A stretch of 64,000 bases of DNA from an uncultured Gemmatimonadales bacterium (lineage in GTDB: Bacteria; Gemmatimonadota; Gemmatimonadetes; Gemmatimonadales; Gemmatimonadaceae). The notes under the pieces are model-generated. The model made no database searches. It was given only the letters and a program-made list of their open reading frames with translations, and had not been told where the DNA came from. The stretch lies in assembly GCA_963701965.1 (NCBI GenBank), contig OY969695.1, positions 2,528,001 to 2,592,000 of the forward strand, in the 5' to 3' direction. Shown piece by piece: positions 26,904 through 34,461 of the stretch (positions within the stretch are counted from its first letter, which is position 1; each line of letters opens with the position of its first letter). The translations under genes were made by a program, and so were the position numbers.

Positions 26904-28134
26904 ATGCCTCTCGCCAGCCGCCGTCAGACGGTAACCGCCTCCGTGGGCGGTGTCGCGATCGGATCCGCGCACCCGATCGTCGTGCAATCCATGACCAACA
27001 CCGATACTGCCAATGCCGCCGCCACCGCGGAACAGGTGGTCGCGCTCGCCCGGGCGGGCTCGCAGCTGGTGCGGATTACGGTCAACAACGAGGAGGCCGC
27101 GGCAGCGGTTTCCGGGATCGCCGAACGGGTCGCCGACCTCGGGGTCACCGTCCCGCTCGTCGGCGACTTCCACTACAACGGCCACCTGCTGCTCGCCAAA
27201 TACCCGGCCTGCGCCCGCGCGCTGGCCAAGTACCGCATCAACCCGGGCAACGTCGGCGGCAAACGCCGCGACGAGCACTTCCGGCAAATCGTCGAGATCG
27301 CGCTCGACAACGACAAACCGGTCCGGATCGGCGTGAACTGGGGATCCCTCGACCAGGATCTCCTCACCACCATGATGGATGAGAACGCCGGGCGCAGCGA
27401 GCCGCTCGAATGCGCGCGACGTCATGATCGAGGCCATGATCGAAAGCGGCCTCCGCTCGGCCACCCTCGCCGAATCCGTGGGCCTTGGCCACGACCGCAT
27501 CCTCATCTCGGCCAAGGTGAGCCTGGTGCCGGACCTGGTCGACGTCTACCGCCGTCTGGCGCCCCGCTGCGACTATCCGCTCCACTTGGGACTCACCGAG
27601 GCGGGACTGGGCACCAAAGGGGTGGTCGGATCCAGCGCGGCGCTCGCGATCCTGCTCGGCGAAGGCATCGGCGACACGATCCGGGTCTCCCTCACCCCGC
27701 GCCCGAACGGGGATCGCACCGAAGAGGTCATTGTCGCCCAACAGATCCTGCAGTCGCTCGGTCTCCGCAACTTCACGCCGCAAGTCACGGCGTGTCCGGG
27801 CTGCGGGCGCACGACATCGACCTTCTTTCAGCACATGGCCGAGGACATCCAAACCTATCTGCGCGAGCAAATGCCGGTGTGGCGGGAACAACATCCCGGG
27901 GTCGAGACCATGCGGGTCGCGGTCATGGGATGCGTGGTCAATGGCCCGGGCGAATCCAAGCATGCCAACATCGGCATCTCGCTCCCCGGCACGTTCGAGG
28001 AGCCGAAAGCCCCGGTCTACGTCGACGGCAAACTGGTCGTGACGCTGCGCGGCGAAGGCATCGTGCCGGAGTTTCTGGCCATTCTCGAGGACTACGTCGC
28101 CCGGACGTACCCTGCCGCGATGCCGGTCGCGTGA
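26904..28134 (+). CDS. ispG: HMBPP synthase (GcpE), 1-bp frameshift near 27409
   Basis: [26 protein letters not shown]; after the shift [34 protein letters not shown]. Confidence 0.93.
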
Positions 28135-29974: not shown

Positions 29975-30997
29975 ATGCGCGACCGCGTAATGCGCGCGAT
30001 GCTGCTGGAGGCGCCGCGCCAGCCGCTCCACATGGTCGAGTGGGCGGAGCCGACGCCCCTCGATGGGCAGATCCTGATCCACGTGCGGGCGTGCGGCGTC
30101 TGCCGGACGGATGTGCACATCGTCGACGGCGAGCTGCCGAACCCGGCGGTGCCTTTGATCATCGGCCACCAGATCGTAGGAACAGTCGCGGCCCGTGGCC
30201 CGGGCGCCGAGCGGTTCGAGATCGGGGCGCGGGTGGGCGTGCCGTGGCTGGGGTGGACGGACGAGACGTGCCGCTACTGCCGGAGCGGCCGCGAGAACCT
30301 GTGCCCGAATGCCCGCTTCACGGGCTACACGATCAATGGGGGCTACGCGGACGCGGTCACCGCCGATGAGCGCTATGCGGTCGCGATTCCCGACGACTTC
30401 ACGGACACGCAGGCGGCGCCGTTGCTGTGCGCGGGACTGATCGGATACCGCGCCTTGATGGCGGCGGGCGACGCGCGGCGGGTGGGCTTCTACGGGTTCG
30501 GGGCCTCGGCGCACCTCATCGCCCAGGTGGCGCGCTACCAGGGCCGCGAGGTGTACGCATTCACGCGCCCGGGCGATACGACGACGCAAGCGTTCGCCAA
30601 GAGTCTGGGCGCCGCGTGGGCGGGGGACTCGGACACGATGCCGCCTGAGCGGCTGGATGCGGCGATTCTGTTCGCGCCCGTGGGCGCGCTGGTGCCGACG
30701 GCGCTGCGCGCCGTGGACCGGGGCGGGGTGGTGGTGAGCGCGGGCATCCACATGTCGGCCATCCCGTCGTTTCCGTACGCGTTGCTGTGGGAGGAACGGT
30801 CGATCCGGTCGATCGCGAATCTCACGCGACGGGACGCCGAGGAATTCATGGCGCTGGCGCCGCGCGTGCCGGTGCGGCCAACGGTGACGTCGTACCCGCT
30901 GGCCCACGCCAACCGCGCGCTCGCCGATCTGCGCGCGGGCCGCGTGCGTGGTGCCGCGGTGCTCGTCATGTCCGGCACGCCGCGCTTGACACGGTGA
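29975..30997 (+). CDS. Zinc-dependent alcohol dehydrogenase family protein
   Basis: CGVCRTD.H, GHQIVG, C..C..G.ENLC, APLLCAG, GFGASAH. Confidence 0.92.
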   Translation: MRDRVMRAMLLEAPRQPLHMVEWAEPTPLDGQILIHVRACGVCRTDVHIVDGELPNPAVPLIIGHQIVGTVAARGPGAERFEIGARVGVPWLGWTDETCRYCRSGRENLCPNARFTGYTINGGYADAVTADERYAVAIPDDFTDTQAAPLLCAGLIGYRALMAAGDARRVGFYGFGASAHLIAQVARYQGREVYAFTRPGDTTTQAFAKSLGAAWAGDSDTMPPERLDAAILFAPVGALVPTALRAVDRGGVVVSAGIHMSAIPSFPYALLWEERSIRSIANLTRRDAEEFMALAPRVPVRPTVTSYPLAHANRALADLRAGRVRGAAVLVMSGTPRLTR

Positions 30998-31167
30998 GCG
31001 ACCGTACCTACCGGCAGCGCACCGGCATCCCCGCGTCCCTCGTGGTGGTGGGCTTGGCCGCGAACGATTTCACGATCGCGGATGCGGACGATCCCGCGAT
31101 GCTCGACGTCGTGGGTCTCGATACCACCACGCCGCAGATGATCGCGTCGTTCATGACCGACGGCTGA
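30994..31167 (+). pseudogene. C-terminal remnant (57 aa) of a Ro60/TROVE-vWA protein
   Basis: YRQRTGIPASLVVVGLAANDFTIADADDPAMLDVVGLDTTTPQMIASF matches the Ro60 C-terminal pattern YR..GI.A.L.V.G...N.FTIAD.DD..MLD..G.D...P..I..F (recognised by eye). Confidence 0.75.
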
Positions 31168-31248
31168 CAACGAAAGAGCCCCGGGAGAAATTCCCCGGGG
31201 CTCTTGTCGTTCGTATGGCGGTGGAACCGCCACGGCCGTCTCGCAAGC
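31168..31248 (-). ncRNA. Putative small RNA 1, antisense to the anticodon arm of the adjacent tRNA
   Basis: TTGACG-N16-TAAAAT promoter (31283-31256); 5' GCTTGCGAGACGGCCGTG is 17/18 complementary to tRNA C23-C40; internal hairpin; terminator hairpin 31174-31205. Confidence 0.7.
31174..31205. terminator. Probable bidirectional terminator
   Basis: AAGAGCCCCGGG...CCCGGGGCTCTT stem with short T-rich tails on both strands. Confidence 0.75.
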
Positions 31249-31321
31249 ACTTTCAATTTTATATGATTCCACGCCAGCGTCAACGCTGCGGATTACCGAA
31301 TTCTACGATTGCCAACTAGCG

Positions 31322-31405
31322 TACCCGGGACGGGATTCGAACCCGCACGCCCTTGCGGGCAGCCGCTTGCGAGACGGCTGTGTCTACCAGTTCCACCACC
31401 CGGGC
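31322..31405 (-). tRNA. Atypical tRNA: Leu-type (class II) body with Ala anticodon CGC
   Basis: GCCCGGG TG GTGG AACTGGTAG ACAC A GCCGT CTCGCAA GCGGC T GCCC GCAA GGGC GT GCGGG TTCGAAT CCCGT CCCGGGT A; full cloverleaf, long variable arm, A15/U48, A73, C3-G70; CCA not encoded. Confidence 0.92.
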
Positions 31406-31481
31406 ACCGTTCACGCTCGGCGAAAACTGGATGGTGCGACACAGATTCATCGCAAGTGCTGCGCGACTAGCTGGCGGCGAA

Positions 31482-31513
31482 CAATGTATCGACCCGATGC
31501 GATTCGCGCATCG
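31482..31513 (-). promoter_or_regulatory. Putative promoter of the tRNA precursor with palindrome over -35
   Basis: CGATGCG-N5-CGCATCG palindrome (31495-31513); ATGCGC-N17-TACATT. Confidence 0.65.
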
Positions 31514-31539
31514 TTGTATTTCGCACATCATCATGACCA

Positions 31540-31594
31540 ACAACGAAAGAGCCCCGAGGGACATCCCCCGGGGCTCCACAGCAGTCTCGCACGC
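31540..31594 (-). ncRNA. Putative small RNA 2, antisense to the anticodon arm of the adjacent tRNA
   Basis: 5' GCGTGCGAGACTGCTGTG is 16/18 complementary to tRNA C23-C40; followed directly by terminator 31549-31576, which shares a 17-nt tail with sRNA 1. Confidence 0.65.
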
Positions 31595-31599
31595 ACCCG

Positions 31600-31631
31600 C
31601 AATGTATCGGCACGATGCGATTCGCGCATCG
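31600..31631 (-). promoter_or_regulatory. Duplicate promoter block for sRNA 2
   Basis: 30/32 identical to 31482-31513. Confidence 0.65.
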
Positions 31632-31645
31632 GTGAATGTCACACG

Positions 31646-32269
31646 TCAGCGCGCGGCGACCTCGGCCCCGCGGCGTTCGACATCGTCCGTGGCGAGGCGC
31701 AGCTCGGCGAGGATCGGTGCGGTGAATCCGACCTCGGCGAGGCGATCGCTGAGCTCCCGGTAGTAGCGAATCGTGCCTTCGCGCCCGCGCAACGTCCGCG
31801 TCCAGATGGTCTCGGGATAGTCGGTGCGCCGGAGATCGGCGAGGATGGTGCCGATGCTGTGCAGCGCGTCGGCCGCGCCGACCCAGCGCGAGGCGTCAGT
31901 CGCGATGGCCAGTCGCGTGACGACATCGCGCTTGCGCTCATCGGGCGAGAGCTCGACACCGTTGTCATCCGTCCGCCGCTCCGTCACGGCCAGCGCGATC
32001 TCGAGAACGCTCTGGCCGAACTTGGCGCCGATCCAATCATCGAGCTCTTCGCGCGTGAATCCGTCGCGCACGGACCCTTCCACGACGCCATGCAGGATGC
32101 CGGCGAGCACCGTGTCCTCCGGCTGGCCATATCGCGTGAGAATGACCGCGACATTCGCCGGCCGGGTCAGATACGGCAGAGCCGTACCCTTCCGCACCTG
32201 GGTATCGTGATGTTTCGCCGCAAAGGCGAACGCGTGATTGATGCGGTCGGAGTAGCCGGAAATAGTCAA
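31646..32269 (-). CDS. HD-domain protein (RelA/SpoT-hydrolase / Mesh1-like) with degenerate metal site
   Basis: AFAFAAKHH..Q.RKGT..PYL.RP..VA, AGILHGVVEG (HD to HG, ED to EG), VTE; TTG start assumed. Confidence 0.75.
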   Translation of the reverse strand: MTISGYSDRINHAFAFAAKHHDTQVRKGTALPYLTRPANVAVILTRYGQPEDTVLAGILHGVVEGSVRDGFTREELDDWIGAKFGQSVLEIALAVTERRTDDNGVELSPDERKRDVVTRLAIATDASRWVGAADALHSIGTILADLRRTDYPETIWTRTLRGREGTIRYYRELSDRLAEVGFTAPILAELRLATDDVERRGAEVAAR

Positions 32270-32354: not shown

Positions 32355-32804
32355 TTACACGTATTGATTCACGACCGCGATGAACCGGGCGTGGAGCGCG
32401 AGCAGCGCCGTGCCCTGCACTATTATTCCAAGTCCGGCGCCGATGCCCCCGGCCCGGCGTCCTTGCGTCAGCACGACGGTCGCCAGCACGAGCGTCAACC
32501 CCGCGGCGGCGAAGCCAATGTCCAGACCGCTCTCCAGCCACAGGAGACGGCTGAGGCGTGCGGCGGCGCCCAGATCGCGGAGTGCGAGCCCATGTAGACG
32601 GCGCGCCGCCACGGCCAGTTCGACGGCGCCCCAAGCAAGCGTTTGGAACGCGAACCCCTGCAAGAGCGGCGAATGCCCCTGACGCCGGCGCAATACCGCC
32701 AGCGACGCGAGGACCGCCGTCCCGGCGACGATGGAGATCAGCGCCCACAGCGCGAGTCGCACCAGGTGCGCGCGCTCAGCGAGGAGTAAGGTGTCCGCCC
32801 ACAT
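32355..32804 (-). CDS. Hypothetical membrane protein (about 4 TM)
   Basis: Four hydrophobic segments; W...GLD.G motif. Confidence 0.7.
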   Translation of the reverse strand: MWADTLLLAERAHLVRLALWALISIVAGTAVLASLAVLRRRQGHSPLLQGFAFQTLAWGAVELAVAARRLHGLALRDLGAAARLSRLLWLESGLDIGFAAAGLTLVLATVVLTQGRRAGGIGAGLGIIVQGTALLALHARFIAVVNQYV

Positions 32805-34461
32805 GCCGCCTAAAGTAGCCGATCCGACGTTTCAGGAATGGGCCGAGACGGCCGACGCGATCCGCGCCACGACCAAGCGCCTCGAAAAATCCGCCCTGTT
32901 GGAGCACTACTGCGCCGCGCTGCACGGCACCCCGCTGGCGATCGCCGCGCGATTCTTCTCCGGCATCGTGTTCGCCAGGCACGACATGCGCACGACGAAC
33001 GTCGGCGGCACCATCATCTGGCGCGCCCTCGCCGCGCTCACCGGACACCCTCCGGATGAACTGGGCGCCCGCTATCTCGCCCACGGCGATCTCGGCGACC
33101 TGGCCGGCGAGCTGCTGGCCGACCGCGCGCCGAGTGGCATCACGCTCGTCGCGCTCGCCGAGTGGTTCGCGCGGCTCGCCGCGGCCCCCGGCACCAACGC
33201 CCGCCGCGCAATGATCGCCGAACAACTCGGCGCCCTGGGCGGACTGGAGGCCCGGTTCGTCATCAAGCTCCTCGGCGGCGAGCTGCGCATCGGGCTCAAG
33301 GAAGCGCAGGTGGAGGAGGCGCTGGCCCGCGCGTTCGCGCAGACCCTGGGCACCGTGCGCCGCGCCAACCTGCTCCGCGGAGACATCGGCGAAGTGGCGC
33401 AACTCGCCCGCGACGGTCTCTTGGAGACGGCGGTCCTGACGCTGTTTCATCCCATTGGATTCATGCTCGCCCAACCGCTGGCCACCGCCGATGAAATCTT
33501 GGCCACGCTGCCCGCGCCGTTCGCGATCGAGCACAAATACGATGGGATCCGCGCCCAAGCTCACGTGGGCGCCGATCGCGTCGTGCTCTTCTCCCGCACC
33601 TTGGATGACGTGTCACGGGGATATCCCGAAGTCATCGCGGCGCTGTCGCGCGTGCCGTCCGGTCTCGTGCTCGACGGCGAATTGATCGCCTATGATTCGG
33701 ACAATGCGGACGACCCAACACGCGCGCTCCCGTTCCTCGCATTACAGAAAAGGTTGGGCCGCAAATCGCCCGGCGCGACGCTGCTGCAAGAAGTCCCCGT
33801 CGCTCTCGTCGTCTTCGACATCCTGGCCGCGGACGGCGCGCTCGTCATCGACGAGCCATACACCGCGCGGCGCCAACGCCTGGAGGCCATGACCTGGCCG
33901 CCGCCCACGCTCCGCCTGGCACCCGTGATCGTCGCGCAAACCGTCGAAGAGGTCGACGCGGCATTCCGTGACGCGCGAGCGACCGGCAACGAAGGGTTGG
34001 TCGCCAAGGATCGGGCATCGACCTATACCCCCGGCCGCCGCGGCAAAACGTGGATCAAGCTCAAACGCGCCGAGCATACGCTCAATGTGGTGGTGACCGC
34101 CGTCGAGCGCGGACACGGGCGGCGTCGCGACGTGCTCTCCGATTATACATTTGCCGTGCGCGCTTCCGACACGGACCCGACGTTGCTCGACGTCGGCAAG
34201 GCGTACAACGGTCTCACCGACGCGGAGATCGCGGCGATGACGAAACGATTCGAAGACCTCACCATCACGCGGCGCGGCGGGTACCATGTCGTCCAACCCG
34301 AGGTCGTACTGGAAGTCACGTTCGACATCGTGCAGCCGTCGGACCGGCACGCCGCCGGCTACGCCCTGAGGTTTCCGCGCATCGTGCGCATTCGGGACGA
34401 TAAGCCCGTCGCCGAGATCGACACCCTCGATCGCGTGCGCGCGCTAGCGGCGGCGCTCTGA
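32803..34461 (+). CDS. ATP-dependent DNA ligase (LigB-like)
   Basis: EHKYDGIR, LDGEL, VFDIL, EGLVAK, YTPGRRG..WIKLK, LRFPR..RIR.DK. Confidence 0.95.
   Translation: MPPKVADPTFQEWAETADAIRATTKRLEKSALLEHYCAALHGTPLAIAARFFSGIVFARHDMRTTNVGGTIIWRALAALTGHPPDELGARYLAHGDLGDLAGELLADRAPSGITLVALAEWFARLAAAPGTNARRAMIAEQLGALGGLEARFVIKLLGGELRIGLKEAQVEEALARAFAQTLGTVRRANLLRGDIGEVAQLARDGLLETAVLTLFHPIGFMLAQPLATADEILATLPAPFAIEHKYDGIRAQAHVGADRVVLFSRTLDDVSRGYPEVIAALSRVPSGLVLDGELIAYDSDNADDPTRALPFLALQKRLGRKSPGATLLQEVPVALVVFDILAADGALVIDEPYTARRQRLEAMTWPPPTLRLAPVIVAQTVEEVDAAFRDARATGNEGLVAKDRASTYTPGRRGKTWIKLKRAEHTLNVVVTAVERGHGRRRDVLSDYTFAVRASDTDPTLLDVGKAYNGLTDAEIAAMTKRFEDLTITRRGGYHVVQPEVVLEVTFDIVQPSDRHAAGYALRFPRIVRIRDDKPVAEIDTLDRVRALAAAL

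Follow-up and report, generated by a model that had tools for sequence, protein, structure and literature searches.

Several described RNA systems come close to the locus analysed here, and the following account of them draws on parts of the articles cited. In hok, the full-length RNA is closed by pairing of its 5' and 3' ends, the nascent RNA adopts a metastable fold, and slow maturation of the 3' end is followed by antisense attack (PMC9841398). SdsR, a repressor of mRNAs, and RyeA are encoded by the opposite strands of a single locus (PMC8610362). CreA works by way of CRISPR Cascade, and what CreT sequesters is tRNA (PMC8501985). The tRNA-ProX of Streptomyces and Kitasatospora is toxic in E. 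coli (PMC10404621, PMC11415595). Bacterial LeuRS recognises A73, the tertiary core and how the variable arm is oriented, and it tolerates changes of the anticodon (PMC2377443).

The window, a stretch of 64,000 nt from an uncultured Gemmatimonadales bacterium, contains a cassette whose order is a weak -10 box/promoter, an antisense leader of about 70 nt, a tRNA, a trailer, a TTGAC-type sigma-70 promoter, an antisense sRNA and a terminator hairpin. Judged from sequence, it is rather probable that this cassette is a mistranslating-tRNA toxin held off by a co-transcriptional leader trap together with an antisense antitoxin, following the logic of hok/Sok. The features of the locus are as follows:

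30994..31167, plus strand: 3'-end remnant of rsr (Ro60), its last 57 codons, convergent with the cassette (vWA_Ro60 match, 2.8e-17); a mark of the insertion site, not a functional part
31165..31250, minus strand: predicted antisense sRNA A, about 85 nt (inverted repeats, duplex prediction)
31256..31283, minus strand: sigma-70-type promoter of the antisense sRNA, TTGACG-16-TAAAAT, 10/12 (promoter scan, 1 found vs 0.2 expected)
31311..31320, minus strand: trailer closing a 9-bp terminal helix with the 5' end of the leader (folding, pairing tests)
31321..31405, minus strand: tRNA with a Leu-type body and the Ala anticodon CGC, no encoded CCA (tRNA call and Rfam)
31406..31475, minus strand: leader of 70 nt, which repeats the 5' half of the tRNA in antisense, colinearly and in degenerate form (pairing, alignment, swap tests)
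31483..31530, minus strand: predicted promoter of the tRNA precursor, with a TACATT box (31488-83) and a 19-bp palindrome (31495-31513) over the -35 region, possibly an operator (inferred from sequence and the 49-nt repeat D1)
31540..31648, minus strand: orphan second unit with a copy of the tRNA promoter (31600-31648), antisense copy C (31577-31594, 16/18 complementary) and a terminator (31548-31577) (repeats D1, D2, D3, I3)

The orphan unit is probably the relic of a duplicated cassette which has lost its tRNA. Elsewhere in the window, ispG/gcpE (26904-28134, plus strand) is seemingly split over two frames, the GcpE match of the second ORF being limited to model positions 139-342, which may reflect a frameshift or an assembly error.

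Two further tRNAs of this kind (GAC and CGC), with an identical layout, are present elsewhere in the genome, and additional cassettes were collected from two samplings. The first combined a DNA search of 61 relatives with a pattern scan, and 120 of about 540 matching stretches were examined; 20 of these were titled Gemmatimonadota and comprised 12 new intact cassettes, 3 known ones, 4 interrupted or truncated ones and 1 cut by the end of its locus. The resulting 31 intact cassettes, 3 of them added by hand, gave a first set of 27 once near-identical leaders had been removed, and the controls were 19 ordinary tRNA-Leu genes taken from these loci and from this genome. The second sampling used a cassette pattern, blind to anticodons with a central A, which matches 23 of 401 Gemmatimonadota genomes. 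It yielded 30 loci, of which 4 were already in the first sampling and 3 were set aside as broken (one of these, L306, is probably a register slip). The held-out set consists of 18 non-redundant loci from the remaining 23, and includes two TGG tRNAs without a cassette.

Nine anticodons occur among 43 cassettes, and the eight found in the first set read codons which rank 1, 2, 4, 5, 7, 10, 11 and 31 in this genome. Broken family tRNAs are also seen, either interrupted (L061, L072, L110), truncated (L068, L305) or, at L022, deleted while promoter and terminator persist. The patchy, multi-copy spread, taken together with these broken tRNAs, would fit a costly gene. The interruption in L061 (2000-2130) and L072 (2000-2150), both on the plus strand, consists of some 60 nt of structured sequence inserted into the T loop, with leader and antisense kept, and may represent inactivation or a further lock. 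At L109 and L301, a tRNA with the anticodon GCG appears intact and the antisense is degenerate, a point against the toxin-antitoxin reading. DNA/RNA repair genes, including an ATP-dependent ligase, neighbour the cassette at L282, L283, L029, L006, L037 and in the window (32731-34461), a list counted without a background rate.

Outside the phylum, 31 Leu-like tRNAs with other anticodons show no antisense and for that reason were not counted as family. On viral contigs (121 of about 220 matching stretches), antisense was found in 0/32 of the non-Leu tRNA-like rows scored. Leu-like tRNAs whose anticodon is that of Ala, Asp or Pro, and whose very long variable arm measures 26-31 nt, occur without antisense in other phyla (L049, L052, L098, L101, L132, L135, L146), possibly as a second family, and Saccharibacteria have tRNAs with a Leu-type D arm, a long variable arm, A73 and the anticodon ACC (Gly) (L041, L114, L136). 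Within the same phylum, two Leu-body TGG (Pro) tRNAs (L290, L302) share another context, with an upstream hairpin and a downstream small ORF, and have no antisense.

The tRNA at 31321..31405 is labelled tRNA-Ala(CGC) by ARAGORN, and a separate ordinary tRNA-Ala(CGC) gene is present in the same genome. Its D arm, long variable arm and A73 are those of the tRNA-Leu genes of this genome, and its Leu-type body carries U8, A14, A15, U48, G18G19, A20a, the long variable arm, A73 and C3-G70. The features of tRNA-Leu identity (A73, U8-A14, A15-U48, G18/G19 and the long variable arm) are present in the window tRNA and in the family. The G3-U70 pair of tRNA-Ala identity was found in 0/31 family tRNAs. 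An Rfam scan returned a single match, to the tRNA family (50.7 bits, full, positions 1-71, canonical arm order), and no Y RNA family. The anticodon loop has 7 nt, with U33 in 29/31 and a purine at position 37 in 31/31 family tRNAs, and 19 of the 25 cloverleaf pairs show two-sided changes among 22 homologues. Since the Leu identity elements are present and LeuRS tolerates anticodon changes, the window tRNA is predicted to be charged with leucine and to insert it at GCG (Ala) codons; GCG ranks first among the codons in a set of 1604 long ORFs from this genome.

Downstream of the tRNA, the putative antisense sRNA region carries the strongest signal in the cassette, far above that of the leader. 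The original prediction, which dealt with the precursor, had passed over its much stronger antisense block at 31217-31248. The predicted sRNA A begins with a 5' toehold against the anticodon loop, continues with a block complementary to the anticodon arm (17/18 nt) and an 11-nt D-arm block, and ends in a terminator-like hairpin (31174-31205) with a U run; its duplex with the tRNA is predicted at -58 kcal/mol with about 33 pairs. A TTGAC-like -35 element lies downstream of the tRNA in 26/27 cassettes. The downstream region best matches the anticodon arm of its own tRNA in 22/27 first-set and 14/18 held-out cassettes and in 1/19 ordinary tRNA-Leu genes. Duplexes of -20 kcal/mol or below are predicted for 24/28 family tRNAs, 0/28 Leu tRNAs and 0/63 of the remaining Leu-like tRNAs, which come from other phyla and from viruses. 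Two cassettes (L002, L004) have more promoter-plus-antisense repeats after the first sRNA, 150-250 nt downstream of the tRNA, resembling small antidote arrays and comparable to the orphan copy at 31540-31648.

The leader was originally described as carrying four colinear blocks complementary to the tRNA, and all four are found on the minus strand: GCAGC (31458-62) pairs with 31359-63, CTTGCGA (31450-56) with the anticodon loop (31366-72), CTGTGTC (31438-44) with 31378-84 and CCAGTT (31425-30) with the D loop (31387-92). The pairing of the precursor ends is likewise real, joining 31467-75 to 31311-19 over 9 bp with one G-U. Local alignment of the reverse-complemented leader with tRNA nt 1-52 gives a score of 38.5, a value reached by 6/5000 random genome segments, and the 29.6 expected leader-tRNA pairs are reached by 3/200 leader shuffles. 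The duplex energy of -50.0 is reached by 50/1000 shuffles, and for the whole 165-mer the folding z is -1.9, with 7/200 shuffles as stable. Scoring by the longest exact match did not separate family leaders from controls, and duplex, alignment and swap tests were used instead.

Across the family, colinear antisense scores are 31.6 in the first set and 29.9 in the held-out set vs 24.1 in controls (p 9e-5 and 0.002, a significance inflated by kinship). Leaders pair better with their own anticodon arm than with swapped ones, both in the first set (-17.8 vs -15.6, p 2e-4) and in the held-out set (-17.3 vs -15.2, p 8e-4), although cassette kinship overstates both p values, and leader and trailer ends behave in the same manner (-13.1 vs -10.2 and -11.7 vs -10.1, respectively). 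In both sets, cognate preference was not significant in far-upstream DNA or in tRNA-Leu controls. The own anticodon arm is ranked first by the leader in just 3/27 first-set and 0/18 held-out cases. Among 22 aligned precursors of the 31, the leader block facing the D arm is 89% paired, and one position in this helix is U-A in 10 sequences, C-G in 7, U-G in 4 and unpaired in 1; in the blocks that face the anticodon arm, pairing is only 51%. The last bases of the leader lengthen the acceptor stem by U-1:A73 and G-2:C74 pairs, and the -2:74 pair occurs in 20/27 first-set and 14/18 held-out cassettes and in 1/19 controls. These comparisons support the view that leader complementarity is kept across about 45 cassettes and changes along with the tRNA. 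A GUCGCAG-like motif (31433-31440, minus strand, and homologous leaders) is conserved; the rod leaves it unpaired, and the leader's own hairpin loops it out. It shows complementarity to the anticodon loop in GCG members (4/6) and resembles the Y RNA motif.

It had further been proposed that the precursor folds into an inert rod which excludes the cloverleaf, in the manner of hok fold-back inhibition. For the 165-mer, the rod is predicted at -73.9 kcal/mol and the forced cloverleaf at -70.9; the ensemble gap is 4.8 kcal/mol, and 3.7 for the tRNA alone, which leaves a net leader effect of about 1.1 in a model without tRNA tertiary contacts. A stable rod is predicted for 17/27 first-set and 5/18 held-out cassettes and for 6/19 ordinary tRNA-Leu controls, with median energy gaps between rod and cloverleaf of 2.65, 0.22 and 0.95 kcal/mol, respectively. 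Many leaders pair internally and so leave the cloverleaf, and RNAalifold on 22 precursors returned the cloverleaf with zero leader pairs. During transcription, predictions for the nascent window RNA put the rod first as soon as the D arm appears, and in stepwise folding the leader holds 11 to 26 tRNA pairs from emergence of the D arm until past the trailer. The nascent leader and 5' half form at least 18 pairs in 22/27 first-set and 9/18 held-out cassettes and in 5/19 controls. The proposal thus stands as a predicted co-transcriptional fold-back with conserved leader complementarity, whereas the equilibrium rod, which was not replicated in the held-out set and is preferred by only about 1 kcal/mol net in the window, is not a general feature. 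The reading that suits the leader best is that of a kinetic trap which can also form a self-hairpin as its alternative fold, rather than a permanent rod.

A primary transcript of 165 nt, as originally proposed, was not confirmed. Its 5' end at 31475 is a prediction, the TACATT box at 31488-83 being unscored by the promoter scan, and no terminator-like site was found at 31311, after the trailer. Hexamers of the -10 type resembling TACATT directly precede the terminal helix in several homologues. The palindrome at 31495-31513 has two copies in the entire genome, both at the promoter repeat of this locus, and so points to no regulon. Because there is no terminator after 31311, the primary RNA is probably about 310 nt long, carrying the antisense in cis and ending at the hairpin 31174-31205. 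In such read-through RNAs, the leader or the 3' antisense pairs with the tRNA core in 26/27 cassettes (controls 5/19), and the acceptor stem is favoured in 0/27 (controls 5/19).

The weakness of the leader signal compared with that of the sRNA bears on a reading in which the antisense sRNA is the sole control and the leader is a decaying relic, devoid of inhibitory role, of the inverted duplication that built the cassette. The rod found in just 5/18 held-out cassettes, and the leaders which self-fold and leave the cloverleaf, also speak in its favour. Yet three families retain the D-arm block and the end pairing, both of which change together with the tRNA, and a neutral relic should not retain the U-A/C-G switch or the -2:74 pair; a relic is distinctly unlikely. 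The palindrome that covers the tRNA promoter's -35 region may in turn suggest a host-controlled switch rather than an addiction module, one which would produce a tuned burst of Leu misincorporation under stress, possibly after DNA damage. Such a switch, while unlikely, would agree with the repair genes that are nearest neighbours at several independent sites (Ada, rSAM_link_UDG, MutS, UvrA, rsr-rtcB) and with a report that E. coli survives DNA damage better with the help of mistranslation (PMC7082066). At many sites, however, the neighbours are unrelated, the repair-neighbour count stands without a background rate, and the patchy spread (23/401) with frequent breakage is more like that of a selfish element.

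A tRNA acting outside translation, as a decoy, an uncharged signal or nuclease bait whose level is merely set by the leader and the sRNA, is very improbable in view of the full Leu identity set, the conserved U33 (29/31) and purine 37 (31/31), the 7-nt loop, the covarying stems and the choice of anticodons that target the commonest codons. Precedents exist, as some allo-tRNAs are inactive in translation (PMC5389517) and the authors of the tRNA-ProX study leave non-translational roles open (PMC10404621). The original prediction had offered, as its alternative, that the end-paired stem is a Y-RNA-like helix bound by Ro60, and the surroundings lend this some colour: an rsr remnant adjoins the cassette, GUCGCAG, the conserved motif of the leader, is similar to the GNCGAAN0-1G motif of Y RNAs, and in three relatives the cassette lies between intact rsr and rtcB. 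In these relatives the cassette is nevertheless on the strand opposite to rsr, and most cassettes are far from rsr. In a fourth relative the tRNA has been lost at the rsr site, and a fifth has rsr without the cassette. The exact motif occurs in 3/31 leaders and is absent from the window. TROVE domains match 5/61 genomes, with none in the present 95%-complete single-contig genome and none in five carriers of the cassette (G000, G007, G038, G046, G054), and no Rfam Y RNA family matches. A bacterial Y RNA would have the motif near its 5' end, a Ro60 gene on the same strand within 4 kb and a permuted tRNA-like domain with the T arm before the D arm; the window has only a remnant, on the opposite strand, and the canonical arm order. 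A Ro60 ligand is hence scarcely credible here, and the rsr site reads as one insertion site among many.

The preferred reading remains that of a mistranslating tRNA restrained by its leader trap and by the antisense sRNA. The leader, transcribed first, would trap the D arm and the anticodon arm at the moment of their emergence and keep an RNase P substrate from forming during transcription, and with no terminator past the trailer a read-through RNA of about 310 nt would bear the antisense block in cis. Trimming of the 3' end to the terminal helix would produce the 165-nt form, in which rod and cloverleaf are nearly balanced and refolding is slow, and the U-1:A73 and G-2:C74 pairs would delay maturation further. 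In this form, the rod would conceal the anticodon loop from the sRNA, and the cloverleaf would expose it. Once opened or mature, the tRNA would show this loop to the abundant sRNA and be destroyed or sequestered. When synthesis of the sRNA stops, or the palindrome-bearing upstream promoter is induced, mature tRNA would be released and charged by LeuRS, leading to Leu-for-Ala mistranslation at the commonest codon.

Sequence comparison brings together Leu identity elements, an intact cloverleaf, a cognate-specific antisense, a weaker cognate-specific pairing of leader and ends, patchy multi-copy spread and broken tRNAs. The odds lean slightly towards an all-RNA toxin-antitoxin family, in which the toxin is a code-breaking tRNA within a self-locking precursor and is disarmed by an anticodon-matched antisense, and in which swaps of anticodon and antidote yield orthogonal pairs, several per genome, directed against the commonest codons. 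If this is correct, a working tRNA would serve as a toxin, an antisense RNA would target a tRNA and a tRNA precursor would block its own folding. Bacteria or their selfish elements would then keep a switchable mistranslation of abundant codons, and the debated benefit of mistranslation would become directly testable by a natural on/off system. The 'extra' Ala, Val, Arg and Asp tRNAs mis-annotated in Gemmatimonadota genomes would be explained, and compact, orthogonal control parts made only of RNA would be at hand. A full-text literature search, whose scope left out most subscription papers and supplements so that a prior mention is possible, did not find a description of the cassette or an earlier example of any of these three things: a working tRNA as toxin, an antisense RNA against a tRNA, or a precursor that hinders its own folding.

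Comparison with the known systems, based on parts of the articles cited, places the cassette close to several of them. Y RNAs of the YrlA/Yrn1 type (PMC4201824) similarly have paired ends around a tRNA-like part, and some copies lie beside rsr; the cassette, unlike them, has a complete canonical tRNA, lies on the opposite strand, mostly lacks the motif and is found for the most part in carriers in which Ro60 was not found. Allo-tRNAs (PMC5389517, PMC7609411) share the diverse anticodons on one body, mistranslation and a proposed link to toxin-antitoxin loci. They have an 8/4 or 9/3 fold and Ser or Ala identity, in contrast to the Leu identity and canonical 7/5 acceptor/T branch of the window tRNA, which sets it outside that group, and the word 'antisense' is absent from the main texts of both articles. 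The tRNA-ProX (PMC10404621, PMC11415595) is, like the cassette tRNA, a natural bacterial tRNA with one identity and another anticodon. It combines a Pro body with a dedicated, adjacent ProRSx, whereas the cassette has a Leu body, nine anticodons and predicted RNA-based control. Its Leu body, and a scan of 47 + 8 + 11 neighbouring ORFs without a synthetase, separate the cassette from tRNA-ProX; the words 'leader' and 'antisense' are absent from the main text of PMC10404621.

With the type VIII systems SdsR-RyeA (PMC8610362) and CreTA (PMC8501985), the cassette shares a proposed RNA toxin and RNA antitoxin, and its antitoxin RNA is complementary to the toxin RNA, as is typical of this type (the cognate match being best in 22/27 and 14/18 cassettes). 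As far as the parts of these articles go, neither toxin is itself a tRNA, as that of the cassette would be. The likeness to hok/Sok (PMC9841398) covers four points, all of them predicted for the cassette: long-distance 5'-3' pairing, inhibition by a fold that arises during transcription, activation through maturation of the 3' end and antisense attack on the active form. The proposed toxin of the cassette differs from that of hok/Sok in being a tRNA and not a peptide, so that folding and processing of the cloverleaf would be blocked rather than ribosome binding, and the antisense gene is an inverted copy located downstream on the same strand. Type I systems require a small-protein toxin mRNA, and the antisense target here is a tRNA. 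In its predicted working, the cassette thus resembles hok/Sok and the type VIII systems, and as tested it belongs to neither.
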